Source: Antechinus flavipes (Eukaryota). Taken from it: 64,000 nucleotides of DNA. Where the stretch lies: assembly GCF_016432865.1 (NCBI RefSeq), contig NC_067403.1, forward strand, positions 242,854,001 through 242,918,000, read 5' to 3'. The notes below the pieces were generated by a model. The model did no database searches. It was not told the origin of the DNA and saw only the letters and a program-made list of their open reading frames with translations. Below, piece by piece: positions 1-63,104 of the stretch; position 1 is the stretch's first letter; each line of letters begins with the position of its first letter. Both the position numbers and the translations under genes were made by a program.

Positions 1-3000
1 TATTTCAAGTCTTCCTGATTCCATATTTAGTACTCTATCCACTGTTTTACTTCACTGCCCTGTAAAATATTATATATCACATATAACATACTAATATACA
101 AATGAAACTTATCATTCTCTATTAGTAAGATATTGTGTAATAAAATGAAGATAGAGCTTTATTTTATATATTTTAATAGAATGAATAAATAAAATTACTT
201 GCAGGACAAACTGGTACCATGTAAAGAAGAGATTTTTTTAAAAAGCATTTTATTCAGTAGATTGTGAAATATATTATTAGAGGTACAAAGCTTATGTAAA
301 AAACAAATTGTTTACTAAGAGAATATAGTTTAGAAGAAAAATAAGACAGGTACATAAAGTTTTAAGTCACATGCTTTCTGGAGAAAATGAAGACAACCAA
401 AGATCTGGAAGAGGATTCTGTGATGTATATTTTAAATGAAAAAGTCAGACATCTTAATAAAGACCTTGGAAGAGACAGGTGGCAAGAGTGGAATACTGGA
501 CAAAAACAAAAGCTTCATTACCATAATCAAGAGGTAAGTGAGCACAATAAGAAGTGCATGGTATGAAGACACACATCTTATCATTCTTTATGATGTCTGC
601 AATTTTACTGAGAAAATTTTGTCCAATAGTTTTGTCTGGAGTTCTTTTAATCAATTTTTTACTCATAAAATCTTTTAATTTAATTTTAAATTTTGGATTT
701 CATTTAAATTTACTTGCCAGAACCACAATAATATGAATCAATGAATGTATCTAGATATATTACATAGATATATACACATCCATACATATGCACATGCATG
801 TATGCACATGAATCTATATTTGTGTATATGTTTGTGTTTATATGTGGGGGTTGATGACATTTTGAAATAGCATACATTTGTGTATTATAGATATTTTCAA
901 TCCTGTATAAATATTTGCTCACATCATGTATGCATACATTTAGTAACATTTATTTGAGGGGCTATGCCATTTCACTAAGTTATATATGAAGAGACATTGG
1001 ATTTTGATCTCATTAAATTCATGAAATCATATTTTATAGAAGAGCAAAATTAATTTTGCATAGCTAATTCTAGGAAAGCATTTTGCAATTTATAAAATAT
1101 TATATAATTATTGTAAGTTTTGTTGATTTCTGCACTTCAGCAGCATTCTTTGTAGGTGCTCTATTCACTGATGCAAATAACATTCCCTTTTATAACTTCC
1201 TAAAATAAAATTGAGTAAGTAAAATTTTACCAATCCTTAATGGTTCACTATGAGATAGCATACAATTAGTCAATCCTAAACCCCATATTCTGATTTTTCT
1301 TACTTTCTTGGCTTCCCAAACGTTATATTCTGTGGGAAAAACTTTCAAGTGCACAGGATCATCTTGATACCATAATAGTATAGGATTTCATTAAAGTTAT
1401 TATCATTGCTGCTGATGTTAATTAGTATTTTGTGGTGATTAGCATTAATATTATGATAAACTTGCTTGGGTTATATATTTTTGGATTATTTAAATTTTAT
1501 AATTATTTTATAGTTATTATTGACTGACAATGAGAATTAAAAGATTATCACATCTGTTTTGATCAAATTTTAATCATGCTGTTATTAACAAGTGTAATGA
1601 TACTGTATGTGAAATTATTCATAAATACATTCCAAAGGCACGTCTGAATGACATTATCTAGCATGAGAAAGTGTGTGTATTATATAATTATGTGAGAACA
1701 TTTGGGATCAAAATATCTCTCATATCTGTTATGTTTTTTTTTGTGAAGGAACATATATCTCAAAAAAGATGTTCACTTCCTATTGCTTATTTCCTGGCCC
1801 AGCACTTATGATTTAAGAAACCAGGGGAATTTCTTTCTGGCTATATGAACTTTAGAACCACAATCATCATCCCAGGGTAAATATACCCACCTACTTTTCC
1901 TAATACTTGTTCCTCATCATCAGAACATAGAAAATGGATTTACATTGTTATGCCTTATTTTTCCATTCATTAACATTCCTATTCCAAAAGATTTTTGTGA
2001 AAACAAGACCAGTTTTTAAAGCTGATCATTTCTTCCTCAATTCTAATACTAGTTAAATGGTAATAATATTTTTATTTATAGGTAAATCAATTTTGACTTT
2101 TGAATTCATACATTAGAAAAAGAAAGAAAAATATGGAAAGCAAGAACAATGTGACTGAATTTGTCCTCCTAGGACTCACTGAGAATCCTGAGATTCAGAA
2201 AGCATTATTTGTTGTCTTCTTAGTAATCTACATTATAACTCTTGGGGGCAACCTTTTGATTGTGGTAACAGTGATTTCCAGTAAGTCCTTAGACTCCCCC
2301 ATGTACTTCTTTCTTGCATATTTATCTCTTATGGATGCTGTCTATACCACAGCTATTTCCCCCAAAATGATCATAGACTTGCTCTATGAGAAGAAGACCA
2401 TTTCATTCCAGGCTTGCATGACCCAGCTTTTCATTGCACACTTTTTTGGTGGTTCAGAGGTCTTCCTCTTGATGGTAATGGCTTATGACCGCTATGTGGC
2501 CATCTGTAAGCCCTTGTATTACTTGGTTATCATGAGACGTCGTGTATGTGTTTTATTGATGATTGTAGCCTGGATTGGAGGTTTCATTCATTCAGTGGTT
2601 CAGCTCCTTTTAATTCTACAGCTGCCCTTTTGTGGCCCGAATGTCATTGATCATTTCATATGTGACATGTACCCGTTATTAGAACTTGCCTGTACTAATA
2701 CCTATATCATTGGACTCTCAGTGGTTGCTAATGGAGGAGCGATCTGCGTTGTCATCTTTACAATGTTGCTCATCTCCTATGGAGTCATCCTACGCTCCCT
2801 GAAGACCCATAGTTTGGAAAGCCAGCGCAAAGCTCTTTCTACCTGCATGTCCCACATTACAGTTGTTGTCCTATTCTTTGTTCCTTGTATTTTCATGTAT
2901 GTCAGACCTGTTCGTACCTTCTCCGCTGATAAAACAATGACTGTAATTTTTACTATTGTCACTCCCATGTTGAACCCCTTAATCTACACCCTGAGAAATA

Positions 3001-5587
3001 AGGAGATGAAGAATGCCATGAAGAAACTCAAGAACAGAACAAATGACTCAATTATACATTGATGGCCTCTAAGGGAAACACAAAAGGATATTTCATACTT
3101 AAGTCTTGTTTTCTGGGAAGGGAAGGAAAGTGGCTAATGAAGAGAATATCTTTTCTATCAGTCAATAGACAAACATTTATTTTATCATCACTTTTATGTT
3201 TCCCAAAGCTAATTTTGATGAAAACACTACTCTAGGCGGAATATAAACTCCTTACAAAAACAACTATTCATTTTGTGTTTGGGGCATTTTTTTTCTCAAA
3301 AGAAATGGGTCTAATGATTACAAAAAGAAGAAAATTGTAATCTATAACAAATATCAAACATGGTGCTGAGAACTGATTATAGATAGGGAGGGCTTCTGTG
3401 GGAATATACTTTCTTACTGAATAAATGAGATTATTTCTTTATTGACTTGAATATATTACATTTCACATTTTAAGTACATATTCATTGAAGTCAGTAGGAC
3501 ATATAATTATATTTTTGCCTTTAATGATGTAAAAGACAGCATGATTTTGTGAGAAGAAAAATCTACTTCAGCAGGAAGAAGATGCCAGCTCAAGTGCTGT
3601 GTTTGACCCATATACCCTGTGTGACATCGAACTAAACTTTTTAGTTACTCAAGCACTTCTCTAATAGAAAGATTTCTTTAGTAGCAGTTTCTGTACTATT
3701 GAAATCTCATGTTTAATATACTAGTTCCAACATCAACAAAAATATAAGTATAATAATGATGAGCATAAGGTCAATGAGCATAATATGAAACCTATAGATG
3801 CATGAATATTTTGTTTTATATAAAGGATATATTTATACAAACAACATATGTATTATGATACAGAGTAGAGAAACACTCACTGTTAAGGATCAAGTCCTAT
3901 TTTCAAATTATTCCAGTGATGTTTACTTTTGTTAACATGGGAAAATAAATTATTGGGCCTCCATCTCCTAATTAGTAATGAGACTTAAATTAGATAATGT
4001 TTGAATTCTCCTGCAGTTGTAATTATAAAGTTATAACTGAATTTTATAGATTAAATTATAATTTATCCTTGAATTAAAAACAACCAAAAAATATGAATGT
4101 ACTATGATGAATCTGGTCTATCTCTCATGATTTGTTAATTATTCCTTTGGAAGACACACAATGCAGAAATTGTTTCCATATAAAAGGGAAAACATGGGTT
4201 GTGAAAAGATAGAAAAAGGGCTATCAGGGAGTTTTAAAGTTGAACCACATTTAGACCTGCAGAAAGGGATGCACTAAAGACCACAAGCAATATCCATTTA
4301 AGGCACCATGGGACAGATCTAACAGGGACCAGTACTAGATCAAAACTCTTGGAGAAACTACATTCTTATAATTAGCCATTGAGATGGAACCCATAATCGA
4401 CAAAAATGTTTGACTAATTACAGAATAACAAAAGTCTTATAGAAGAGAAAAATCTATGTGCCAGGGGAAAAAATGAAAAACAGAATTGAGAAAGAAAAGA
4501 AGAACAAAAAAGTAAATGTTATAAGTTATAGTATCATGTTATAAAGCAGCAAATCTAGACCATGACACTAGCAGTATGAAATTGATATAACATGTGAATC
4601 CAAAGAGGAAAGATTGAAACTTTAGTACTTGTAAGCTATGAAAAAAGGACTATAATTCAAAAAGACTCATATAAGTCCTTATAGAAAATGTGAGTTTGAT
4701 TACAATTGGTAACAAATGTTTTCTGTATTTTAGCTATATAAATATTAAAAAATAAAGTTGTTTTTAAAATTAATGATCTTTTTTTCCTAAGTCATTCTAC
4801 TGGGAATATTCAGGGCCTTTCCTAGGAAGTAAAATGAGTTTTATGTTGCAGTTCTCAGAATAATGAGCTAGAGATCTTTGTGACAGACCTCACCAAAACT
4901 TTATCCAGATTTTAATTTCTGGAGGGTCCATTTGCTAGAAGCAAATTCTAATACATTTCTCTTGTTTGCAATGATATTTTGGTCAAAACAGCTCTTAATA
5001 CAAGAAAATATAAATATTATTAGTCCTATTATGGTTATATAACTAGGGAAACTTAGGCCTATGGCAGTTGAGTGGCCTACAGGATAAACAGCTAATTCAC
5101 AACAGAGTAAGAACTATTAGCCAAAATCTTTTATTTCCTTGTCCTAAGCTCTTTCCTTCCAAGTAAAATGCTTACTTAGCATGAATATAATCAGAAGTTT
5201 TTTCTAAGTTGGCTCAGCACAAGATAAAATCATTAACTTTGAAACCACATAAATATTTTCTAAAATATTTTACCAACTTAATGCAAATTAGTCCCAGATC
5301 ATTCTTATAATGGAGAAAGATAATTATCTGAAAACCTGAGGGGGCATTAAAATATATTTAAAATATCCCGAGATTTAAGAAAAAATAACTATAAATGTGT
5401 TCTTGTATATGAAACAGATTTTTTTTTCCTAAAGGGACTTTGGAAAAAAAGGATGGAAAAAAACTGGAGCTCACAACTTGAAGGAATTCCATCATTTAAT
5501 GGAAGAATCAAGTTGTGTCACATGTTCAAAACTAAGAGAACAGGGGAAATCTGAGAAGCTTATAGATACATATTTGTTAATAAATAA
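1..5587. repeat. Segmental duplication, copy 1 (paralogous to 12823-18480; probably extends past the left edge)
   Basis: Colinear near-identity from tcaagtcttcctgattcca (5 vs 12827) to tatttgttaataaataa (5587 vs 18480), where the copies diverge abruptly. Several indels, roughly 4-5% substitutions. Confidence 0.95.
2133..3062 (+). CDS. Olfactory receptor, family 4 (OR4A-like), 309 aa, intact
   Basis: True ATG at 2133 ([10 protein letters not shown]); the ORF-track start at 2100 is a TTG extension. OR motifs: N-glycosylation [41 protein letters not shown]. MDAVYxTAxSPK is typical of OR4A. Candidate splice acceptor tttttatttatAG ends at 2081. Confidence 0.95.
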
Positions 5588-12822: not shown

Positions 12823-15800
12823 ATTCTCAAGTCTTCCTGATTCCACATTTAGTATTCTATCCACTGTTTTACTTCACTTCCCTGTAAAATATTATATATC
12901 ACATATAACATACTAATATACAAATGAAATTGATCATTCTCTATTACTAAGAAGGTATTGTGTAATAAAATGAAGATGGAGTTTTATTTTATATATCTTA
13001 ATAGAATGATAAATAAAATTACTTGCAGGACAAACTGATACCATGAAAAAAAGAGAGTGTTTTTTTTTAAAGCATTTTATTCAGTAGATTGTAAGATATA
13101 TTATTAGAGGTACAAAGCTTATGTAAAAAACAAATTGTTTACTAAGAGAGTATAGTCTAGAAGGAAAATAAGACAGGTACATAAAGTTTTAAGTCACATG
13201 CTTTCTGGAGAAAATGAAGACATCCAAAGATCTGGAAGAGGATTCTATGATGTATATTTTAAATGAAAAAGTCAGACAACGGGATACTTAAGAAAATTGT
13301 AGATCTTTGCCTCTCATCTTAATAAAGATCTTGGAAGAGACAGGTGGCAAAAATGGAATACTGGACAAAAACAAAAGTGTCATTACCATAGTCAAGAGGT
13401 AAGTGAGCACAATAAGAAGTGAATGGTATGAAGACACATGTCTTATCATTCTTTATGATGTCTGCAATTTTACTGAGAAAATTTTGTCCAATAGTTTTGT
13501 CTGGAGCTCTTTTAATCAATCTTTTACTCATTAAATCTTTTAATTTAATTTTAAATGTGGGATTTCATTTAAATTTACTTGACAGAACTACAATAATATG
13601 AATCAATGAATGTATCTAGATACATTACATAGATATATACACATCCATACTTTATGCACATGCATGTATGCACATGAATCTATATTTGTGTTTATATGTG
13701 GAGGTTGATGACATTTTGAAATATCATATATTTGTGTATTATAGATATTTTCAATACTGTATAAATATTTCCTCATATCACATATCATATACGCATATAT
13801 TTAGTAACATTTATTTGAGGGGCTATACCATTTCACTAAGTTATATATGAAGAGACGTTGGATTTTGATGTCATTAAATTCATGAAATCATAATTTATAG
13901 AAGGGCAAATAAAATTTACATAGCTAATTCTAGGAAAGCATTTTGCAATTTATAAAATATTATATAATTATTGTAAGTTTTGTTGATTTCTGCACTTCAG
14001 CAGCATTCTTTGTAGGTGCTCCATTCACAGATGCAAATAACATTCCCTTTTATAACTTCCTAAAATAAAAGTATTTTATTCCCCTGGTTATATATAAAAA
14101 TATATATATAAATAAAAGTAAAATGAGTAATCCATATTCTGAGTTTTCTTGCTTTCTTGACTTCCCAAAGGTTATATTCTGTGGGAAAAACTTTCAAGTG
14201 CACAGGATCACCTTGATACCATAATAGTATAGGATTTCATTAGAGTTATTATCATTGCTGCTGATGTTAATTAGTATTTTGTGGTGATTAGCATTAATAT
14301 TATGATAAACTTGTTTGGGTTATATATTTTTGGATTTTTGGATAAAATTGTTTAAATTTTATAATTATTTTATAGTTATTATTGACTGACAATGAGAATT
14401 AAAAGACTATCACATCTGTCTTGATCAAATTTTAGTCATGCTGTTATTAACAAGTGTAATGATACTGTATGTGAAATTATTCATAAATACATTGCAAAGG
14501 CACATCTGAATGACATTATCTAGCATGGGAATGTGTGTGTACTATATAATTATGTGAGAACATTTGGGATCAAAATATCTCTCATATCTGTTATGTGTTT
14601 TTTTTTTTTTTTTTTTTTGTGAAGGAACATATATCTCAAAAAAGATGTTCCTCGTGCTTCCTATTGCTTATTTCCTGGCCCAGCACTTATGATTTAAGAA
14701 ACCAGGGGAATTTCTTTCTGGCTATATGAACTTTAGAACCACAATCATCATCCCAGAGTAAATAAACCCACCTACTTTTCCTAATACTTGTTGGTCATCA
14801 TCAGAACATGGAAGATGGATTTACATTGTTATGCCTTATTTTTCCATTCATTAACATTCCTGTTCCAAAAGATTTTTGTGAAAACAAGACCACTTTTTAA
14901 AGCTAAAGAAATTCCTCAATTCTAAAACTAATTAAATAGTAATAATATTTTTATTTATAGGTAAATCAATTTTGACTTTCGAATTCATACATTAGAGAAA
15001 GCAAGAAAAATATGGAAAGCAAGAACAATGTGACTGAATTTGTCCTCCTAGGACTCACTCAGAGTCCTGAGATTCAGAAAGTGTTATTTGTTGTCTTCTT
15101 AGTAATCTACATTATAACTCTTGGGGGCAACCTTTTGATTGTAGTAACAGTGATTTCCAGTAAGTCCTTGGGCTCCCCCATGTACTTCTTCCTTGCATAT
15201 TTATCTCTTATGGATGCTGTCTATTCCACAGCTGTTTCCCCCAAAATGATCATAGACTTGCTCTATGAGAAGAAGACCATTTCGTTCCAAGCTTGCATGA
15301 GCCAGCTTTTCATTGAACACTTTTTTGGTGGTTCAGAGGTCTTCCTCTTGGTGGTAATGGCTTATGACCGCTATGTGGCCATCTGTAAGCCCTTGTATTA
15401 CTTGGTTATCATGAGACGCCGTGTATGTATTTTATTGCTGGTTGTAGCCTGGATTGGAGGTTTCATTCATTCAGTGGTTCAGCTCCTTTTAATTCTACAA
15501 CTGCCCTTTTGTGGCCCTAATGTCATTGATCATTTCATATGTGACATGTACCCGTTATTAGAACTTGCCTGTACTAATACCTATATCATTGGACTCTCAG
15601 TGGTTGCTAATGGAGGAGCGATCTGCGTTGTCATCTTTACAATGTTGCTCATCTCCTATGGAGTCATCCTACGCTCCCTGAAGACCCATAGTTTGGAAAG
15701 CCAGCGCAAAGCTCTTTCTACCTGCATGTCCCACATTACAGTTGTTGTCCTATTCTTTGTTCCTTGTATTTTCATGTATGTCAGACCTGTTCGCACCTTC

Positions 15801-18480
15801 TCCGCTGATAAAACAATGACTGTAATTTTTACTATTATCACTCCCATGTTGAACCCCTTAATCTACACCCTGAGAAATAAGGAGATGAAGAATGCCATGA
15901 AGAAACTCAAGAACAGAACAAATGACTCAATTATACATTGATGGCCTCTAAGGGAAACACAAAAGGATATTTCATACTTAAGTCTTGTTTTCTGGGAAGG
16001 GAAGGAAAGTGGCTAATGAAGAGAATATCTTTTCTATCAGTCAATAGACAAACATTTATTTTATCATCACTTTTATGTTTCCCAAAGCTAATTTTGATGA
16101 AAACACTACTCTAGGCGGAATATAAACTCCTTACAAAAACAGCTATTCATTTTGTGTTTGGGGCATCTTTTTTTTTTCTCAAAAGAAATGGGTCTAATGA
16201 TTACAAAAAGAAGAAAATTGTAATCTATAATAGATATCAAACATGGTGCTGAGAACTGATTATAGATAGGGAGGGCTTCTGTGGGAATATACTTTCTTAT
16301 TGAATAAATGAGATTGTTTCTTTATTGACTTGAACATATTACATTTCACATTTTAAGTACATATTCATTGGTGTCAGTAGGATATATAATTATATTTTTG
16401 CCTTTAATGATGTAAAAGACAGCATGGTTTTGTGAGAAGAAAAATCTACTTCAGCAGGAAGAAGATGCCAGCTCAAATGCTGTGTTTGACCCATATACCC
16501 TGTGTGACATCGAACTAAACTTTTTAGTTACTCAAGCACTTCTCTAATAGAAAGATTTCTTTAGTAGCAGTTTCTGTACTATTGAAATCTCATGTTAAAT
16601 GTACTATTTTCAATAATATCAACAAAAATATAAATATTATAATGATGAGCATAAGGTCAATAAGTGTAATATAAAACATATAGATGCATGAATATTTTGT
16701 TTTATATAAAGGATATATTTATACAAACAGCATATGTATTATGATATAGAGTAGAGGAACACTCACTGTCAAGGGTCAAGTCCTATTTTCAAATTATTCC
16801 AGTGATGTTTACTTTTGTTAACATGGGAAAATAAATTATTGGGCCTCCATCTCCTAGTTAGTAATGAGACTTAAATTAGATAATGTTTGAATTCTCCTGC
16901 AGTTGTAATTATAAAGTTATAACTAAATTTTATAGATTAAATTATAATTTATCCTTGAATTAAAAACAAACAAAAAAAATATATGAATGTACTATGATGA
17001 ATCTGGTCTATCTCTCATGATTTGTTAATTATTCCTTTGAAAGATACACAATGCAGAAACTGTTTCCATATAAAAGGGAAAACATAGGTTGTGAAAAGAT
17101 AGAAAAAGGGCTATCAGGGAGTTTTAAAGGCCATTGAACCACATTTAGACCTGCAAAAAGGGATGCACTAAAGACCACAAGCAAAATCCATTTAAGGCAC
17201 CATCGGACAGATCTAACAGGGACCAGTACTAGATTGAAACTCTTGGAGAAACTGCATCTTATAATTAGCCATTGAGATGGAACCCATAATCGACAAAAAT
17301 GTTTGACTAATTACAGAATAACATAAGTCTTATAGAAGAGAAAAATCTATGTGACAGGGGGAAAAAATGAAAAGCAGAATTTAGAAAGAAAAGAACAAAA
17401 AAAGAAATGTTATAAGTTATAGTATCATGATATAAAGGAGCAAATCTAGACCATGACACTAGTAATATGGAATTTATATATCATATGAATCCAAAGAAGA
17501 AAGATTGAGATTTTAGTACTTGTAAGCCATGAAAAGAAAGACTATAATTCAAAAAGACATATAAGTCCTTATAGAAAATGTGAGTTTGACTACATTTGGT
17601 AATAAATGTTTTCTGTATTTTAGCTATATAAATAAAAAAATAAAGTTGTTTTTAAAATTAATGATCTTTTTAGCCTAAGTCATTTTACTGGGAATATTGA
17701 GGGCCTTTCCTAGGAAGTAAAATGAATTTTATGTTGCAGTTCCCAGGATAATGAGCTAGAGATCTTTGTGACAGACCTCACCAAAACTTTATCTAGATTT
17801 TAATTTCTGGAGGGTCATTTGCCAGAAGCAAATTTTAATATATTTTTCTTGTTTACATTGATAATATAGTCAAAACAGCTCTTGATACAAGAAAATACAA
17901 ATATTATTATTCCTATTATGGTTATATAACTGGGGAAACTTAGGCCTATGGTAGTTGAATGGCCTACAGGATAAATAAATAGCTAATTCACAACAGAGTA
18001 AGAACTATTAGCCAAAATCTTTTATTTCCTTGTCCTAAGCTCTTTCCATCCAAGTAAAGTGCTTACTTAGCATGAATATAATCAGAAGCTCTTTCTAAGT
18101 TGGCTCAGCACAGGATAAAACCATTAACTTTGAAACCACATAAATATTTTCTAAAATATTTTACCAACTTAATGCAAATTAGTCCCAGATCATTCTTATA
18201 ATGGAGATAGATAATTATCTGAAAACCTGAGGTGGTATTAAAATATATTTAAAATATCCCGAGATTTAAGAAAAAATAACTATGAATGTGTTCTTTTATA
18301 TGAAACAATTTTTTTTTCTTCTAAAGGGACTTTGGAAAAAAAAGGATAGAAAAAAATTGGAGCTCACAACTTCAAGGAATTCCATCATTTAATGGAAGAA
18401 TCAATTTGTGTCACATGTTCAAAACTAAGAGAAAAGGGGAAATCTGAGAAGCTTATAGATACATATTTGTTAATAAATAA
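12823..18480. repeat. Segmental duplication, copy 2 (paralogous to 1-5587)
   Basis: Colinear with 1-5587 at an offset of about 12.8-12.9 kb; contains the second OR4A-like gene. Confidence 0.95.
15012..15941 (+). CDS. Olfactory receptor, family 4 (OR4A-like), 309 aa, intact; paralog of 2133-3062
   Basis: Full ORF with all OR motifs; 13 aa differences from the first copy. Candidate acceptor ends at 14960. Confidence 0.95.
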
Positions 18481-29824: not shown

Positions 29825-30754
29825 ATGGAAAATAAGAACAATGTTACTGAATTCATTTTACTAGGTCTTGTGAACAGTCCTGACTTTCAGAAAATCCTTT
29901 TTGTTCTCCTGTTATTTACTTATATTGTCACTGTAGTTGGTAATGTACTCATTTTGATCACTATAATTTCCAGCCAGACTTTGTACTCCCCAATGTACTT
30001 CTTCCTTGCCTTTTTGTCTTTAATAGATGCATGCTATTCAACTTCAATTGTCCCCAAGATGCTTGCTGATTTGCTCTGTGAGACAAAAACGATTTCCTTC
30101 AATGGATGCATGACCCAGGTATTTGTGGAACATTTCTTTGGTGCCTCTGAGATTGTCCTCCTCATAGTAATGGCCTTTGACAGATATGTGGCCATCTGCA
30201 AGCCACTGCACTACACAACAATCATGAACCACCAGCTTTGCTGTAACCTTGTGTGTTTGGCTTGGACAGTGGGCTTCCTGCATTCAATGGGACAGATTCT
30301 TACGACATTCTGGCTCCCCTTCTGTGGACCCAATGTCATAGACCACTTTATGTGTGATATTATCCCTTTGATCCAACTTGCCTGCACAGACACTGTTTTC
30401 ATTGGTCTATTGATTGCTACTAATGGAGGATTAATTCCTTTGATTAGTTTTATTGTTTTAATGACATCCTATGTTGTCATACTACATTCTCTAAAAAGTT
30501 ATAGCTCTGCAGGGAGAAGCAAGGCCCTTTCCACTTGTATCTCTCACATCACTGTGGTCTTCTTTTTTTTTGTCCCCTGTATTTTCATGTATCTGCGACC
30601 AGTGGCCACCTTTCCAGTAGATAAAGCTGTAACGGTATTTTATACTCTTATCACCCCCATGTTAAACCCCTTCATCTACACAGTGAGGAATTCAGAGGTA
30701 AAAAATGCCATAAAGAAATTGTGGAATGGAAAAATGGCTTTAGGACATAAATGA
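29825..30754 (+). CDS. Olfactory receptor, family 4 (OR4C-like), 309 aa, intact
   Basis: ATG at 29825 (MENKNNVTEF); the ORF track adds 37 codons from a GTG. Motifs [40 protein letters not shown]. Candidate acceptors end at 29707 and 29781. Confidence 0.95.
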   Translation: MENKNNVTEFILLGLVNSPDFQKILFVLLLFTYIVTVVGNVLILITIISSQTLYSPMYFFLAFLSLIDACYSTSIVPKMLADLLCETKTISFNGCMTQVFVEHFFGASEIVLLIVMAFDRYVAICKPLHYTTIMNHQLCCNLVCLAWTVGFLHSMGQILTTFWLPFCGPNVIDHFMCDIIPLIQLACTDTVFIGLLIATNGGLIPLISFIVLMTSYVVILHSLKSYSSAGRSKALSTCISHITVVFFFFVPCIFMYLRPVATFPVDKAVTVFYTLITPMLNPFIYTVRNSEVKNAIKKLWNGKMALGHK

Positions 30755-42515: not shown

Positions 42516-43445
42516 ATGGAAAACAGGAACAATGTGACTGAATTCATCCTATTGGGTCTTATAAAAAATCCTGAGATGCAGAGAATATTATTTTTAATCA
42601 TTTTAATGACCTATATCATTACTGTGATGGGTAATGTTCTCATTGTGATCACCATAACCTCTAGTCAGACTCTGAATTCTCCAATGTATTTCTTCCTTTC
42701 TTTCTTATCCTTAATTGATGCCTGCTATTCATCTTCAATTGTCCCCAAAATGCTTGCAGATCTACTATGTGAGAAGAAAACAATTTCTTTCAATGGGTGT
42801 ATGACACAAGTATTTATTGAACATGTTTTGGGTGCCTCTGAGATTGTCCTCCTCATTGTAATGGCCTTTGACCGATATGTGGCTATCTGCAAACCCTTGC
42901 ATTATACTACTATAATGAATCATCAATTATGTTGTATCTTGGTGGGCTTGGCTTGGATAGTTGGCTTCCTACATTCAACAGGCCAAATCCTCATCACATT
43001 GTGGCTCCCCTTCTGTGGACCTAATGTCATAGATCACTTTTTATGTGACATCATACCTGTGATCCAACTTGCTTGCACAGATACCTTCATTGTTGGTCTC
43101 CTGATTGCTGCAAATGGAGGGTTAATTTCCATGATTAGCTTTGTTATGTTGATGTGTTCTTATGTTATCATCCTGCACTCCCTAAAAAGTTACAGTTCTT
43201 CAGGGAGACGCAAAGCTCTCTCTACTTGTAGTTCTCACATCACCGTTGTCATCTTATTTTTTGTTCCATGCATTTTCATGTATCTTCGACCAGTGACCAC
43301 TTTTCCAATGGATAAAGCTGTGACTATATTTTTCACTCTTATCACCCCCATGCTAAACCCATTTATCTACACAGTGAGGAATGCAGAAGTTAAAAATGCC
43401 ATGAGAAAGTTGTGGAGCAGAAAAGTTGTTTCAGATTACAAATGA
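42516..43445 (+). CDS. Olfactory receptor, family 4 (OR4C-like), 309 aa, intact
   Basis: Complete ORF with OR motifs ([36 protein letters not shown]). Candidate acceptor ends at 42405. Confidence 0.95.
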
Positions 43446-46527: not shown

Positions 46528-47457
46528 ATGGAAAACAGGAACAATGTGACTGAATTCATCCTATTGGGTCTTATAAAAAATCCTGAGATGCAGAGAATAT
46601 TATTTTTAATCATTTTAATGACCTATATCATTACTGTGATGGGTAATGTTCTCATTGTGATCACCATAACCTCTAGTCAGACTCTGAATTCTCCAATGTA
46701 TTTCTTCCTTTCTTTCTTATCCTTAATTGATGCCTGCTATTCATCTTCAATTGTCCCCAAAATGCTTGCAGATCTACTATGTGAGAAGAAAACAATTTCT
46801 TTCAATGGGTGTATGACACAAGTATTTATTGAACATGTTTTGGGTGCCTCTGAGATTGTCCTCCTCATTGTAATGGCCTTTGACCGATATGTGGCTATCT
46901 GCAAACCCTTGCATTATACTACTATAATGAATCATCAATTATGTTGTATCTTGGTGGGCTTGGCTTGGATAGTTGGCTTCCTACATTCAACAGGACAAAT
47001 CCTCATCACATTGTGGCTCCCCTTCTGTGGACCTAATGTCATAGATCACTTTTTATGTGACATCATACCTGTGATCCAACTTGCTTGCACAGATACCTTC
47101 ATTGTTGGTCTCCTGATTGCTGCAAATGGAGGGTTAATTTCCATGATTAGCTTTGTTATGTTGATGTGTTCTTATGTTATCATCCTGCACTCCCTAAAAA
47201 GTTACAGTTCTTCAGGGAGACGCAAAGCTCTCTCTACTTGTAGTTCTCACATCACCGTTGTCATCTTATTTTTTGTTCCATGCATTTTCATGTATCTTCG
47301 ACCAGTGACCACTTTTCCAATGGATAAAGCTGTGACTATATTTTTCACTCTTATCACCCCCATGCTAAACCCATTTATCTACACAGTGAGGAATGCAGAA
47401 GTTAAAAATGCCATGAGAAAGTTGTGGAGCAGAAAAGTTGTTTCAGATTACAAATGA
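46528..47457 (+). CDS. Olfactory receptor, family 4 (OR4C-like), 309 aa, protein identical to 42516-43445
   Basis: Identical translation; one synonymous difference seen (GGC vs GGA, Gly). Confidence 0.93.
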
Positions 47458-49936: not shown

Positions 49937-50577
49937 AATATATTTATAAGAAAGATCTCATTATGATCATGTTATAAAAGATTCTTAACTGGTGATTATC
50001 CTTTCATTTGCATACAATTTGGTAAAAAAAAAAAAAAAAGATAATTATTTTGTTGTTGTTATGAGGATTAGCACATAATAGAATTATGACCTGTTTTTGT
50101 TAAATAATAGAGAAAATCAATAATTAATACTTAAAGGTACAATTTCTCATTACAGCTATGACACTATACTCATTAATAAGGACCTACTATGTGGCTTTTT
50201 CCTTCTCATTTTGAGGTCATTTTATATTCTGCTCTATATATTCATTTTCTTTAAGTTTTAAAATTTATTATCATTTAGCTCTGATTAGCATCTCATGTTA
50301 ATTTTATAGCTTTGGGTTAATTTTACTATGATCTAGTCCTTTTCATTTTCAATGTTGGTAATATTAGTTTCTGTTCCTTAATTTTTTTTTTTTTACCAAA
50401 TTATTTATTTGTTAATTTTACTTCCCAGTCTGGATTGCTTTGCTACCTCTTCTCTGTCTCTTAGAATTCTAGATTGCTTATGTCACTTTTAAAAAGACTA
50501 TATTCCATAGCTCTATATCCATCTCTCCTACAAAACAAGTATCAAAACAATTTCCTAAATCATGAATACCCATACAC
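49937..50577. repeat. Host segment A, the 5' flank of the ERV (duplicated at 54280-54916)
   Basis: 641 vs 637 bp; 5 substitutions and two homopolymer length differences. Confidence 0.95.
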
Positions 50578-50983
50578 TGTTGGAATCTTTACTAACTGCT
50601 AACTAATTAGAGTTGATCTAATCTTACAAGAAGATGTTTTGGGCAGAACCTGAAACAAGGTACTAAGTAGAACTACCCATAATCCCTCTCTCTGGAAGGA
50701 GCATAAATAGGCCAATGGGCCAGTCGGAGAGGGCTTGGGAGAGTGAAGACGCTACAAGTCGAGATTTCAGCGGAATGACATGAAGAGTTGGAGCTGGCTG
50801 GAGGCTGAAGAAAGCAGAGGCAGAGGCTGAAGGACCAGACCTTTGGATTTAGTGACATTCGGAGAGAGCTCTTGGAACCAAGCAGAGAGATAGGCCTCTA
50901 AGCTAACCGGGCTATATTGGGATAATAAAAGATCTGAACTTTTATCACCTGGCTGCGTTTTTGAGAAGAAAAAGATCACAACA
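50578..50983 (+). mobile_element. 5' LTR (406 bp)
   Basis: TGTTG...CAACA terminal inverted repeat, TATA-like CATAAATA at 50702, AATAAA at 50924-50929, followed directly by the PBS. Confidence 0.95.
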
Positions 50984-50986
50984 TTT

Positions 50987-51006
50987 TGGCGCCCTGAACG
51001 TGGGAC
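50987..51006 (+). promoter_or_regulatory. Primer binding site, tRNA-Lys type (imperfect)
   Basis: TGGCGCCCTGAACGTGGGAC, 3 nt after the LTR end. Compare Lys1,2 TGGCGCCCAACGTGGGGC and Lys3 TGGCGCCCGAACAGGGAC. Confidence 0.9.
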
Positions 51007-51028
51007 AAACAGAACCCTCAGTGGATTT

Positions 51029-51093
51029 CAGTGGAAAAGCTCCGATCCTGATTCAAGTGGAAAAGCCTCTGATCCTGATCCAGTGGAAAAGAC
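51029..51093 (+). repeat. Three short direct repeats in the ERV leader
   Basis: cagtggaaaagctccgatcctgat / caagtggaaaagcctctgatcctgat / cagtggaaaaga. Confidence 0.85.
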
Positions 51094-51108
51094 TTCAACC
51101 CAGAAATT

Positions 51109-51117
51109 AGGGTGAGT
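51109..51117 (+). promoter_or_regulatory. Putative major splice donor
   Basis: AGG|GTGAGT consensus 5' splice site between PBS and gag ATG, the usual retroviral position. Confidence 0.65.
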
Positions 51118-51165
51118 GCAACAAAGAAATTTTGTTAGAAGAGTTAAAGTAGAATTTCAGCTAAG

Positions 51166-52860
51166 ATGGGACAGATATTTAGAAAACAGCCTGTTTCTGT
51201 TCAAGGAAAATGTTTAGAGAGCATTGTCAAAGTTATGGAAAGCCAAGGTTTAATTATAAGTTTACAGCAAATCACTGAACTTTTACAAACTGTAAAGGAC
51301 ATATGTCCTTGTTTCTCTCTTGATAAGGAATTAGATCTAAATGAATGGAAATTAGTTGGAGAGGATCTTTGTCAATTCTATGATAAAAATGGGCCTAACT
51401 CAATAATTAATACATATAATGTAACACAATTGGCTATAAGAAGTTATTTAAGTGATAGAATGATGAAAAGGAAAGTACAAGAGGAAGAAATGCCAACTTT
51501 ACTAGGTGAAAAGGAGGACGAATCAGATGAGAATGGAGTTAATTATAATTCTGAGTATGATACTTCACAGCAGGAGGAATTAGGTGATTCCACATCTCAT
51601 GACCCTCCCTCTGCAATTAACCCTTCATGTGTGGAACAAGGGGGAGGGAGAGAGACAGAAACACAGTCAGCTTCTCCTGTAAAGCAGAATTTGACAAGAT
51701 TAGAAAAAGCATTAATTAAAGCAAAAAATGAAGGAGAAGGTATATCTGATTTTATAAATGCATATCCTGTGATTGAAGAGCTCAACTCCTCAGGTCAAAA
51801 AGAGAGAAAATACACTCCTTTTAATTTGGGAAAAATTAAAGATTTGAAAAAGGGTTGCACTCTTTATGGGGCTACATCAACTTATGTGAAGATGTTACTG
51901 GATAATTTGTCTTATGAAATCTTAACCCCGAATGACTGGAAATCCATCACTAAAACTTGTCTAGAACCGGGACAAAATTTATTGTGGCTTTCGGAGTTTC
52001 ATGAATTATGTAGGATTCAAGCCCAATGCAATAGGCAAACAGGAGCTATTGTACAAGTTGCTTTTGACCAACTAACTGGAGAAGGTCAGTATGCAGAGAG
52101 TTCAGAACAGATTTATTATCCCATAACAGTGTATGAGCAAATTTCTAAGGCTGCAATAAAAGCTTGGAATTCTCTCCCTGGACAGAAAGATGGAAATAAT
52201 GCTTTCACAAAAATAGAGCAAGGTCCCAATGAACCTTTTGCAGATTTTGTGGGACGTTTACAAACAGCTGTAATAAGAACCATTGGAGACAATGCAGCAA
52301 CAGAAATAATGACTAAACATTTGGCTAAGGAAAATGCCAATGAGGTTTGCAAAAGAATTATATGGGGGCTAGACAAAGATGCTCCTTTAGAAGAAATCAT
52401 AAGACGCTGTGCCACAGTGGGCACAAATGCTTATTATGCCCAGACTATGATGAACATGGAAAGACAAGGTCCTTCTTGGCAGAGGAATTCTAGAGAAACT
52501 CGTCGATGTTTTCAGTGCGGAAAAATTGGACATTTGAGAGCTCATTGTAGATATGGAGATAGAGTGAGAAGACAGGGTGAGAGAAAACCCAAAACCCCAT
52601 GTCCAAAATGTAACAGAGGCTTTCACTGGGCCTCTAAATGTATATTGACCCAGAGGAATGAGAGGCAGGGCCCAGCTCTAAAGTATCAATCAAAGGATAG
52701 GTGGGGCATGATAGCAGCTGAGGTTACACCCAGAGAGACTTTAGAAATTCAGAACTCTGATGTCATCAACCAACAGAAAAGCAATCAGGATTACAGTTGG
52801 GAAGAATACAGGCCTTTTAAGACAACAAGACAATATCCAATGCAAACAACTCCAATGTAA
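51166..52860 (+). CDS. gag: Betaretrovirus-like Gag polyprotein, 564 aa, intact ORF
   Basis: MA motif ICPCF...LDLNEWKLVGEDL; CA start AYPV and KDLKKGCTLYGATSTYVKMLL; MHR IEQGPNEPFADFVGRL; two CCHC knuckles CFQCGKIGHLRAHC and CPKCNRGFHWASKC. Confidence 0.95.
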   Translation: MGQIFRKQPVSVQGKCLESIVKVMESQGLIISLQQITELLQTVKDICPCFSLDKELDLNEWKLVGEDLCQFYDKNGPNSIINTYNVTQLAIRSYLSDRMMKRKVQEEEMPTLLGEKEDESDENGVNYNSEYDTSQQEELGDSTSHDPPSAINPSCVEQGGGRETETQSASPVKQNLTRLEKALIKAKNEGEGISDFINAYPVIEELNSSGQKERKYTPFNLGKIKDLKKGCTLYGATSTYVKMLLDNLSYEILTPNDWKSITKTCLEPGQNLLWLSEFHELCRIQAQCNRQTGAIVQVAFDQLTGEGQYAESSEQIYYPITVYEQISKAAIKAWNSLPGQKDGNNAFTKIEQGPNEPFADFVGRLQTAVIRTIGDNAATEIMTKHLAKENANEVCKRIIWGLDKDAPLEEIIRRCATVGTNAYYAQTMMNMERQGPSWQRNSRETRRCFQCGKIGHLRAHCRYGDRVRRQGERKPKTPCPKCNRGFHWASKCILTQRNERQGPALKYQSKDRWGMIAAEVTPRETLEIQNSDVINQQKSNQDYSWEEYRPFKTTRQYPMQTTPM

Positions 52861-52861
52861 T

Positions 52862-52990
52862 TACCAGATGATGAGGAGAAATCCCAAACTTGGTAAATAG
52901 AAGGGAATTAGATTAACTGCATGGGGAAGAGGATCTGCTTATATTTCCACAGATGGAGAAAGAATCAGATGGCTGACTATGAAACTGTTA
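52862..52990 (+). pseudogene. pol: Integrase C-terminal domain remnant
   Basis: Frame from 52862 reads YQMMRRNPKLGK*KGIRLTAWGRGSAYISTDGERIRW. This matches the betaretroviral IN CTD pattern W(K)G....WGRG.A..S..GE...W, with TAG in place of TGG. Confidence 0.75.
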
Positions 52991-53300
52991 AAAAGACTTT
53001 TAAAAGCTTCAGGAATCATTGGATTTCCTAACACAAGATGAAACTGTTTTACTTCTTGAAAAACCAGCAAGAATCATTGGGTTCCCTGAGATGAAAAATT
53101 GTTGATGAGACTTTTGCAGTACTTCAGGGCTTACAGGAACTATTGGATTCCTGGCACATGAACTAATGGACAATGGAATCCTATTGGACTGTTTCTAGGA
53201 CTTATGGACATGTGTAAATTTTTAGGTTGATTCATGTTGTTACATTACTACTAGCCTGTGTTATATTGCTATGTACTTATGTAAATTATGTATAATGCCT

Positions 53301-53729
53301 CCCATATTGATGGATTTATGTATACCATGTATATCTGTTACAAAGTTCTGGCCCATATTGATGGATTTATGTATACCATGTATATCTGTTACAAAGTTCT
53401 GGCCCATATTGATGGATTTATGTATACCATGTATATCTGTTACAAAGTTCTGGCCCATATTGATGGATTTATGTATACCATGTATATCTGTTACAAAGTT
53501 CTGGCCCATATTGATGGATTTATGTATACCATGTATATCTGTTACAAAGTTCTGGCCCATATTGATGGATTTATGTATACCATGTATATCTGTTACAAAG
53601 TTCTGGCCCATATTGATGGATTTATGTATACCATGTATATCTGTTACAAAGTTCTGGCCCATATTGATGGATTTATGTATACCATGTATATCTGTTACAA
53701 AGTTCTGGCCCATATTGATGGATTTATGT
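53301..53729. repeat. Perfect 51-bp tandem array, 8 identical units plus 21 bp
   Basis: Unit cccatattgatggatttatgtataccatgtatatctgttacaaagttctgg starts at 53301, 53352 ... 53658, with a partial unit at 53709. Confidence 0.98.
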
Positions 53730-53762
53730 GTACCCCCTCAGAAACCCCCTATGTTTTAAAAC

Positions 53763-53778
53763 AAAAGAAAGGGGGAGA
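53763..53778 (+). promoter_or_regulatory. Polypurine tract
   Basis: AAAAGAAAGGGGGAGA immediately before the TGTTGG of the 3' LTR. Confidence 0.9.
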
Positions 53779-54024
53779 TGTTGGAATCTTTACTAACTGC
53801 TAACTAATTAGAGTTGATCTAATCTTACAAGAAGATGTTTTGGGCAGAACCTGAAACAAGGTACTAAGTAGAACTACCCATAATCCCTCTCTCTGGAAGG
53901 AGCATAAATAGGCCAATGGGCCAGTCGGAGAGGGCTTGGGAGAGTGAAGACGCTACAAGTCGAGATTTCAGCGGAATGACATGAAGAGTTGGAGCTGGCT
54001 GGAGGCTGAAGAAAGCAGAGGCAG
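53779..54024 (+). mobile_element. Truncated 3' LTR (first 246 bp, no poly(A) signal)
   Basis: Identical by eye to 50578-50823; breaks at agaggcag. Confidence 0.95.
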
Positions 54025-54279
54025 GGCCCAGCTCTAAAGTATCAATCAAAGGATAGGTGGGGCATGATAGCAGCTGAGGTTACACCCAGAGAGACTTTAG
54101 AAATTCAGAACTCTGATGTCATCAACCAACAGAAAAGCAATCAGGATTACAGTTGGGAAGAATACAGGCCTTTTAAGACAACAAGACAATATCCAATGCA
54201 AACAACTCCAATGTAATTACCAGATGATGAGGAGAAATCCCAAACTTGGTAAATAGAAGGGAATTAGATTAACTGCATG
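54017..54279 (+). repeat. Exact duplicate of ERV 52661-52923 (gag end and IN remnant start)
   Basis: 263 bp, identical by eye; shares the 8-bp agaggcag with the LTR. Confidence 0.95.
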
Positions 54280-54916
54280 AATATATTTATAAGAAAGATC
54301 TCATTATGATCATGTTATAAAAGATTCTTAACTGGTGATTATCCTTTCATTTGCATACAATTTGGTAAAAAAAAAAAAAGATAATTATTTTGTTGTTGTT
54401 ATGAGGATTAGCACATAATAGAATTATGACCTGTTTTTGTTAAATAATAGAGAAAATCAATAATTAATACTTAAAGGTACAATTTCTCATTACAGCTATG
54501 ACACTATACTCATTAATAAGGACCTACTATGTGGCTTTTTCCTTCTCATTTTGAGGTCATTTTATATTCCCCTCTATATATTCATTTTCTTTAAGTTTTA
54601 AAATGTATTATCATTTAGCTCTGATTAGCATCTCATGTTAATTTTATAGCTTTGGGTTAATTTTACTATGATCTAGTCCTTTTCATTTTCAATGTTGATA
54701 ATATTAGTTTCTGTTCCTTAATTTTTTTTTTTTACCAAATTATTTATTTGTTAATTTTACTTCCCAGTCTGGATTGCTTTGCTACCTCTTCTCTGTCTCT
54801 TAGAATTCTAGATTGCTTATGTCACTTTTAAAAAGACTATCTTCCATAGCTCTATATCCATCTCTCCTACAAAACAAGTATCAAAACAATTTCCTAAATC
54901 ATGAATACCCATACAC
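54280..54916. repeat. Host segment A', second copy carrying the empty integration site
   Basis: Ends catacac|tacaaatg with no LTR, whereas copy A ends catacac|TGTTGG. Confidence 0.95.
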
Positions 54917-55462
54917 TACAAATGTGAGTGTACATTATTGAAATTGCAAAATTGACCATAATAGTTTCAAAAAATATCCTAATAAAAACTTATGCGTTGG
55001 GAACCTTCACTTGGTGACAATAAAAAGATGGACAATTCCTCACCAAAAATAAGGAACACATGATTAAATGATCAAAAATGAACAAAAAAATTGGAATTGA
55101 GGAACAAGTAGACATAGTTTCACTAGATTATAGCAGTGGATGTTTAGCTGCTAAACTAGAGTATACTCGTGAATGTTTGACTTTGCTCACTGTAATCCAA
55201 AAGTGATTTGCTTCTTACATAAAATAGTGAAAATATAAGAAAGAAATAAAATAAACTTTTTTTTTTGGGGGGGGGTCAAATTTCAAGCAAAATAAGCATT
55301 GACCAAATAAATAAACCATATTGTTTAGCTAATAGAAACATAGGAGGTTTAGAATGGCAATTCAAAGCCATGTTACATCCAGACGAAAATAGAGTAGGGG
55401 CACATAGATGGATATGTCTTTAAATTCTTCCTTTGACATATACTGATTTTGATCACTTGATC

Positions 55463-62165: not shown

Positions 62166-63104
62166 ATGGAATACTCTGACTCTCCAAACAATGTGACTGA
62201 ATTTATTCTCCTGGGACTTACACAAAATCCACAACTGCAGAAAATACTCTTTGTTGTATTTTTAGTCATCTTTCTCTTCACTGCATTGGCCAACCTGTTC
62301 ATTGCAGTCACCATTGCTCTAAGCCCTACACTTTCAGCTCCCATGTACTTCTTTCTCACTTTTTTATCTTTTATTGATGCCTGCTATACCTCAGTTCCCA
62401 CCCCTAAGATGATTATTGACTTGTTGTATCACAGAAGAACTATCTCCTTCAATAGCTGTCTCACTCAACTATTTGTTGAACATTTTCTTGGGGGTTCTGA
62501 GATTATCCTTCTCATCGTCATGGCCTATGATCGCTATGTTGCCATTTGTAAGCCCTTACACTACATGACTATTATGCGGCCTCGCGTGTGCTGCTTATTG
62601 ATAATAGTGGTCTGGGTTGGGGGCTTGGTACATGGCACTGCCCAGATCCTCTTCATCATCCATCTACCCTTCTGTGGCCCCAATGTCATTGACCACTTCA
62701 TGTGTGACCTATTCCCATTGCTACAACTTGCCTGCACTGATACCAGTATGCTGGGGATAATTGTTTCTGCTAACAATGGAGTCATGTGCATATTGATTTT
62801 TTCCATGCTTCTTGTCTCATATACTGTCATCTTGTGCTCCTTAAAGACACACAGCTTGGAAGGGCGACGCAAAGCCCTCTCTACCTGTGGCTCCCATTTT
62901 CTTGTGGTAGTCCTGTTCTTTGCACCCTGTATCTTCACCTACACACGATCTGTACGTACTTATGAGATTGACAAACTAGTCACTGTTTTTTATGCTATTT
63001 TTACCCCCATGTTAAATCCTATAATTTACACAGTGAGGAACACAGAAGTGAAAAATGCCATGAGAAATTTGCTTAAAAAAAGAGTCACTTCTACTTCCCA
63101 ATGA
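62166..63104 (+). CDS. Olfactory receptor, family 4 (OR4C-like), 312 aa, intact
   Basis: Complete ORF: [48 protein letters not shown]. Candidate acceptor tttttactctttttAG ends at 62131. Confidence 0.95.

Follow-up and report, generated by a model that had tools for sequence, protein, structure and literature searches.

Does a retroviral insertion that has lost its enzymes and kept gag belong to a family that still copies itself, or is its Gag maintained for the host? The question arises at an endogenous retrovirus (ERV) at positions 50578 to 54024 of a 64,000-nucleotide stretch of the Antechinus flavipes genome (GCF_016432865.1, NC_067403.1, 242,854,001 to 242,918,000, forward strand), which we call the window. 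The original prediction, made from the letters alone, described a young betaretroviral element with an intact Gag and without pro, reverse transcriptase (RT) or env, and offered two explanations: a mobile gag-only family that supplies its own capsid (CA) and borrows Pro/Pol, or a transdominant Gag. It expected a replicating family to show many dispersed copies sharing the deletion, a ratio of nonsynonymous to synonymous change (dN/dS) below 1 in gag, and polymorphic sites. All three were found, and a mobile family borrowing its enzymes is strongly supported by thousands of dispersed copies, by selection on shared gag variants and by an empty site that coexists with the insertion.

A replicating family with one deletion

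We counted marker sequences genome-wide, allowing at most three mismatches; reversed controls gave no matches. The junction left by the deletion matched at 2,604 places and so is not unique to this locus, a marker in the gag of the family matched at 2,740, and the start of the long terminal repeat (LTR) at 18,161. The short layout was common to the best 40 of 6,434 candidates. From 88 oriented copies, 59 were delimited, of which 49 had 6-bp target duplications and 10 had LTR pairs without a mismatch; the median pair difference was 0.5% (0.7% in 33 copies picked by marker). With substitution rates of 1–2 per billion sites per year, these differences date the copies to a few million years at most, some of them close to zero. 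The elements thus form a large, replicating, non-autonomous ERV family, whose copies reached at least 2,600 sites through reverse transcription and the action of integrase (IN). A full-length open gag was present in 19 of the 29 best matches and in 17 of 60 marker-picked loci, another 6 of the 60 having 490–499 codons; the marker-picked set, drawn from near-exact matches on a single chromosome arm, leans young.

Purifying selection on gag

Selection was assessed from variant counts in 49 gag frames that were chosen as open and come from related, recombining copies; individual sites do not count as independent events. Variants seen in a single copy (private variants) were neutral (S59/N165, dN/dS 1.05). 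With wider sharing the ratio was 0.67 for variants in two to three copies (p = 0.04), 0.51 in four to seven (p = 0.03) and 0.45 in at least eight (S27/N29, p = 0.003), and the last class differed from the private one (Fisher p = 0.0009). The pattern is that expected of selection on source copies during replication, not after insertion, and gag has been kept under moderate purifying selection during copying. By domain (43 frames), the ratio was 0.41 in CA (S19/N20, p = 0.005) and 0.32 in the linker (p = 0.03). Between the gag-only lineage and its candidate helper, introduced below, it was 0.29 in CA and 0.16 in nucleocapsid (NC), compared with 0.68 in the unconstrained IN remnant downstream of the junction.

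The private variants were also rich in G-to-A changes (50, versus 33 C to T). Of the 46 differences between the IN remnant and the helper, 21 were G to A and 2 were A to G; a deaminase or an RT bias is a possible cause of the excess.

The candidate helper and the origin of the deletion

Autonomous elements were sought with an RVT_thumb search of the genome, from which we inspected 20 loci and later 20 more. Eleven of the first 20 carried an env-less element of about 7 kb whose pol has 907 codons. Several of these copies had identical LTRs, and in 3 of the 11 gag, pro and pol were all open; the RT marker of the element matched at 3,809 places genome-wide. MEBrv3 (marsupial endogenous betaretrovirus 3) is a 7.3-kb gag-pro-pol element and the dominant ERV of dasyurids (PMC11334065), and a comparison by eye matched our element to the MEBrv3 representative in the supplementary part of that paper. 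MEBrv3 is the likely helper of the gag-only family. Two other sources were rejected. An RVT_1 search returned only long frames of a 1,281-codon type, presumably resembling long interspersed nuclear elements, and was left unused; env-bearing betaretroviral ERVs are poor candidates, with Gag about 30% identical and late motifs in both frames read. Young betaretroviral proviruses that belong to other families, bear env and have long open frames are also present in the genome.

Alignment with one helper copy shows about 3.0 kb to be missing, between the beginning of pro and the end of IN. The gag-only element and MEBrv3 have in common the start of pro, the end of IN (76% nucleotide match in the remnant), 3' repeats, the polypurine tract (PPT) and the lack of env, and a 96/99 clade of 23 rows in the Gag tree holds the Gags of both, apart from the env-bearing beta Gags. 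The family comes from the dasyurid MEBrv3 clade and lost its enzymes in one ancient deletion. MEBrv3 itself is not a recent parent: CA-NC is only 66% identical (synonymous distance in CA 0.82) and the LTRs are unrelated: the gag-only LTR gave no blastn match to LTRs of helper loci, while the PPT region does align. A helper with the same LTR, as first envisaged, was therefore not found. Splicing was rejected as the origin of the deletion, there being no GT donor at the helper breakpoint.

There might nevertheless be, or have been until lately, an autonomous partner that has this LTR and gag and has passed on a conserved gag by recombination. This question was addressed with the marker counts and 15 inspected gag-marker loci. 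The gag-marker and junction counts are nearly equal (2,740 vs. 2,604), and neither pro nor pol was present at any of the 15 gag-marker loci without a perfect junction match (13 carried the deletion and 2 were interrupted). Likewise, none of the 40 inspected pol-bearing loci, 5 of which in the second 20 were not MEBrv3-like, had the gag-only gag joined to pro, and the shared variants inside the deleted family are themselves under selection. In favor of such a partner are protein P0005, which combines the gag of the gag-only lineage with a protease piece, about 13,000 LTR starts beyond those accounted for by paired copies, and three chimeras of helper IN with the gag-only 3' end. P0005 may be a spliced gene model or a fuller form of the gag-only lineage elsewhere. 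On balance we regard this partner as very unlikely.

Recombination with the helper

The gag-only family recombines with MEBrv3 RNA. At locus L153 the sequence changes from gag-only to helper type within the second zinc knuckle and returns to gag-only at a short stretch, common to both, in the IN remnant, with paired gag-only LTRs outside. This double-crossover mosaic with a helper nucleocapsid was found at 24 of the best 40 matches, on five chromosomes; 23 of the 24 were 98–100% identical over 441 bases, and 1 of 6 inspected had a full open gag. A double switch that is subsequently copied is what RT makes from two RNAs in one particle, and the dispersed mosaics therefore point to co-packaged RNAs. 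The three chimeras of helper IN and gag-only 3' end lie in nested or rearranged loci and carry little weight.

Gag-only elements or their LTRs were also seen inserted within helper copies.

The role of Gag

We consider it probable that the element's RNA is carried into mixed particles, alongside helper Gag-Pro-Pol, by the Gag translated from it. In this predicted role, the element's RNA would be translated, the resulting Gag would bind its own RNA preferentially and co-assemble with MEBrv3 Gag-Pro-Pol inside germ-line cells, and the protease, RT and integrase of the helper would finish the cycle within the mixed particles. With a Gag of its own, the RNA would be able to enter particles without a match to the LTR and packaging signal of the helper, which would explain how far element and helper have drifted apart.

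Several observations weigh against this proposal. Full-length open gag is limited to 17 of the 60 marker-picked loci, and inspection covered a minority of the 18,161 LTRs. The selection is moderate and comes from site counts among related, recombining copies chosen as open; only CA and the linker reach p < 0.05, with MA (matrix), NC and the tail not significant, and the ratio for the IN remnant is based on 55 codons. P0005, 83% identical in CA-NC, carries its protease piece without DNA context. Finally, 7 of the 60 marker-picked loci belong to a sub-lineage with a 195-base in-frame deletion (65 residues) in the N-terminal domain of CA (copies L060, L063, L067, L095, L098, L105, L109 and L136). 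Where delimited, these loci have matching LTRs and target duplications, indicating that they are still spreading, and the whole capsid is therefore not needed in cis. That the family supplies its own capsid, as first proposed, may be true in general; not every copy needs to do so, as this sub-lineage replicates without the 65 residues. The sub-lineage is possibly a parasite of the parasite.

Such in-frame deletions among replicating copies would suit a different account with the same family and helper, in which translation through the open frame or nucleocapsid in cis is selected, through RNA stability or delivery to the assembly site, and capsid comes mainly from the helper. In the same direction, the dN/dS of shared variants (0.45–0.51) is weaker than that between lineages (0.16–0.29), and, in the relevant part of PMC7411935, the fusion protein of IAP 1Δ1 helps in cis yet needs GAG and POL in trans. 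The amino-acid signal, however, is clearest in CA, CA-NC retains 76–78% identity with the gag-only proteins of dunnart despite the decay of the IN remnant, and selection for an open frame alone would not hold residues. We judge this account unlikely, though the strongest of the competitors to particle entry by the element's own Gag.

Filled and empty alleles at the locus

In the window the 3' LTR stops at 54024, which had been taken as the end of the element; the sequence then jumps to a copy of 52661–52923, continues into a copy of the upstream flank and runs on. An unplaced contig, C182, contains the same insertion (2,335 of 2,337 element bases match) with a whole 405-bp 3' LTR, two 51-bp units and the 6-bp target duplication, so 54024 is not the true end. 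The downstream flank is common to C182 and the window, with 22 mismatches in 4,394. A contig of run X2, from a related organism, spans the site (54368–55246) without the element. From the whole LTR and 6-bp duplication in C182 and the element-free contig we conclude that the insertion is normal and that an empty allele coexists, probably also on the other haplotype of this genome. The LTR-to-gag joint of the window was in no contig listed from four runs, which alone proves nothing.

For the broken 3' end in the window, mis-joining of the filled and empty haplotypes is the likeliest origin; a real rearranged allele is also possible. One-ended, aberrant integration (PMC5041404) fitted the short LTR and the 640-bp flank duplication and is ruled out by the full LTR and normal duplication in C182.

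The LTR segments 50578–50823 and 53779–54024 are identical over 246 bases, as originally noted. The whole pair, with the 3' LTR taken from C182, has 2 base differences and 1 gap in 406: the insertion is young, with near-identical rather than identical LTRs.

The same evidence bears on the second of the original explanations, a host-domesticated or transdominant Gag kept for restricting MEBrv3. Gags with such functions are exemplified by Fv1 and enJSRV. The open gag is kin to an active element, and an enzyme-free Gag could dilute Pro/Pol in mixed particles. But the copy is young, one of thousands, and private variants are neutral; its site lacks the insertion in a related organism and probably also on the second haplotype, unlike a fixed orthologous locus under selection after insertion. 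We consider a restriction Gag at this locus highly improbable, although interference with the helper is possible as a side effect of the family.

The element is placed within a cluster of what we take, from their motifs, to be olfactory receptors: the window has six intact frames of 309–312 aa (2133–3062, 15012–15941, 29825–30754, 42516–43445, 46528–47457 and 62166–63104). It also contains tandem duplications, 5–5587/12827–18480 at 93% and 40886–44795/44780–48805 at 98–99%, the latter with two identical receptor proteins; this duplication could be another haplotype mis-join.

Spread among dasyurids and age of the deletion

The window Gag had 21 protein matches, one of them a rodent entry, with devil and dunnart among the rest (best 77% and 68%). 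Dunnart proteins P0001 and P0004, 76–78% identical to the window Gag in CA-NC, share with it both the tail made by the junction and the short gap in the remnant, whereas autonomous Gags stop sooner; over 234 columns, identity reaches 85% for a devil protein, although it stops before the tail. Contigs bridging the junction were present in runs X1, X2 and X10 and in RNA run X15, from four organisms, the RNA-run contigs indicating presence, not transcription. The common origin of the two gag-only groups is argued from the shared junction and the shared 6-residue gap, not from the Gag tree, in which they are unresolved at the base. If the host is on the devil's side, as its Gag suggests, and descent was vertical, the tail shared with dunnart would place the deletion before a split dated to 20.6–28.6 million years ago in the relevant part of PMC5715987, giving it a possible age of about 20 million years.

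In dunnart, P0001 and P0003 are almost alike in CA but differ in the matrix region, which resembles that of the window in one and that of P0006 in the other, a pattern suggestive of matrix swapping between lineages.

Anatomy of the element

The original description of the primer-binding site (PBS), splice-donor motif, uninterrupted 564-aa gag, two zinc knuckles and PPT was accurate (Table 1). The IN remnant, put at about 130 bp, measures about 175 bp and begins within the last 53 bases of gag; the frame continues about 16 codons into it and then stops, giving no real Gag-Pol fusion protein. The distance of about 2.8 kb between the LTRs is correct for the window copy, where the 51-bp unit is repeated eight times, and not for the family, whose usual internal length is about 2.44 kb (whole element 3.24 kb). 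The unit is single in 80 of 88 other copies and was not found in the remaining 8. Expansions were seen at 18 loci (31 unit joints), with long arrays at three (window 53301–53734, C4:370314515 and C6:56316639).

The TG...CA LTRs, PBS, PPT and 6-bp target duplication are features of class II (betaretrovirus-like) ERVs. Pfam placed Gag_p10, Gag_p24 and Gag_p24_C above the cut-off in the window Gag and zf-CCHC_5 below it; the beta-type Gag (p10 matrix, p24, two knuckles) is confirmed, and HERV-K Gag is among its best solved relatives. None of the 49 open gag-only frames had a PSAP, PTAP or PPxY late motif, nor did the helper Gag. A Gag without a late motif fits an intracellular cycle. Slippery motifs serve in gag-pro frameshifting.

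Table 1. Features of the element and its flanks in the window
Feature	Position	Strand	Remarks
6-bp target site	50572..50577	+	repeated after whole 3' LTR in C182
5' LTR, TG...CA, 406 bp	50578..50983	+	without match to helper LTR
PBS, imperfect	50987..51006	+	commonest form in the family; tRNA-Lys-like
Splice-donor-like motif in leader	51110..51117	+	putative function; also in helper leader
gag, 564 aa, uninterrupted	51166..52860	+	MA aa 19–93, acidic linker, CA ~201–425, NC, junction-made tail
Two CCHC zinc knuckles	52507..52641	+	aa 448–461 and 479–492
Position of helper's slippery gag-pro frameshift motif	52651..52659	+	motif absent in gag-only element
Family-wide deletion junction (52807/52808)	52800..52815	+	~3.0 kb lost: pro, RT, RNase H, most of IN
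Decayed IN C-terminal remnant, with gaps and stop	52808..52983	+	helper residue kept in 27/55 codons
3' untranslated region, without env	52990..53300	+	~69% like helper's repeat-bearing 3' region
51-bp tandem array	53301..53734	+	8 units in window, 2 in C182, 1 in most copies
PPT	53765..53778	+	31/34 bases around PPT identical to helper
3' LTR as assembled, first 246 bp only	53779..54024	+	whole in C182
Exact second copy of 52661–52923	54017..54279	+	joined via short shared letters; absent from C182
Second version of upstream flank	54281..54916	+	5 substitutions and 2 gaps in 640; continues into empty site; most likely empty allele

The PBS varied among the 59 copies (L002–L109): 26 had the imperfect hybrid, 18 a type that we take to match tRNA-Lys1,2, 4 one presumably matching tRNA-Lys3, and 1 the helper form. 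The mix would fit the use of two primers, with the tRNA copied back into daughter elements, together with evasion of tRNA fragments, an argument that PMC7472051 makes for ETn/MusD.

Known systems and implications

The comparisons that follow draw on parts of the papers cited. With MEBrv3 as published, the family shares its nearest Gag, a Gag and IN remnant of the same clade and the lack of env; it differs in having no pro or pol (about 3.0 kb deleted, 3.24 kb long) and an unrelated LTR. PMC11334065 sorted short ERVs by mapping onto long representatives, and the terms "non-autonomous," "gag-only" and "in trans" are absent from its relevant text, where the gag-only form is not described; the family was probably counted there as MEBrv3.

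Mouse IAP 1Δ1 (PMC7411935, PMC1331978) is likewise a class II, intracellular element with an internal gag-pol deletion; its translated frame is useful in cis and its enzymes come in trans, as would probably be the case for the gag-only family. It is, however, a recent subtype of its helper's family, makes a Gag-Pol fusion and needs GAG in trans, whereas the gag-only family has a whole Gag ending about 16 codons past the junction and lies far from its helper. Mouse ETn/MusD and, in cattle, the D-type of ERVK[2-1-LTR] (PMC1331978, PMC10924933) are also high-copy, non-autonomous betaretroviral elements mobilized in trans, and ETn/MusD have an imperfect PBS with "reverted" copies (PMC7472051). But ETn and the bovine D-type have no intact genes and ETn LTRs are nearly identical to those of MusD, whereas the gag-only family keeps a selected gag and does not share its LTR with the helper, which sets it apart from the ETn type. 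The layout also resembles that of plant TR-GAG (PMC4350172): active elements of <4 kb with LTRs, one gag frame, no enzymes and no closely similar autonomous element found. TR-GAG is Copia/Gypsy-related, so that the present family, with its retroviral Gag, is a betaretroviral parallel and not a member; the relevant text of PMC4350172 mentions neither selection nor animals.

Searches of the accessible papers, which include few subscription journals and neither Repbase nor Dfam, returned no account of a gag-only family in dasyurids or in mammals at large. Gag-bearing elements also occur among MaLR and in fish. The family is real, large and long-lived and apparently undescribed in mammals; its kind is known from IAP 1Δ1, ETn, the bovine D-type and TR-GAG.

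Non-autonomous ERVs of mouse and cattle are described as non-coding or as recent offshoots of their helpers, and simulations in PMC10924933 suggest that families with such parasites are driven to extinction. In the present case, a parasite that keeps gag has apparently lived alongside its helper long enough for a synonymous distance of 0.8 and unrelated LTRs to arise, both still young in copy age, providing a natural test of the cis preference of retroviral Gag, the co-assembly of diverged capsids and the persistence of helper and parasite. The MEBrv3 expansion in dasyurids can be reread accordingly: marker counts in this genome give about two gag-only copies for every three RT-bearing ones, in addition to some 18,000 LTRs. 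Tentatively, and with somewhat more doubt than confidence, we picture a satellite retrotransposon that over about 20 million years across dasyurids may have kept and specialized its Gag for packaging its own RNA and for taking enzymes from a diverged helper, independently of the helper's LTR and packaging signal. Such a satellite would support second-order parasites in the form of the capsid-deleted copies, may act as an interfering brake on its helper, and would account for a large, unrecognized part of the ERV burden, which has been associated with cancer risk in these animals.

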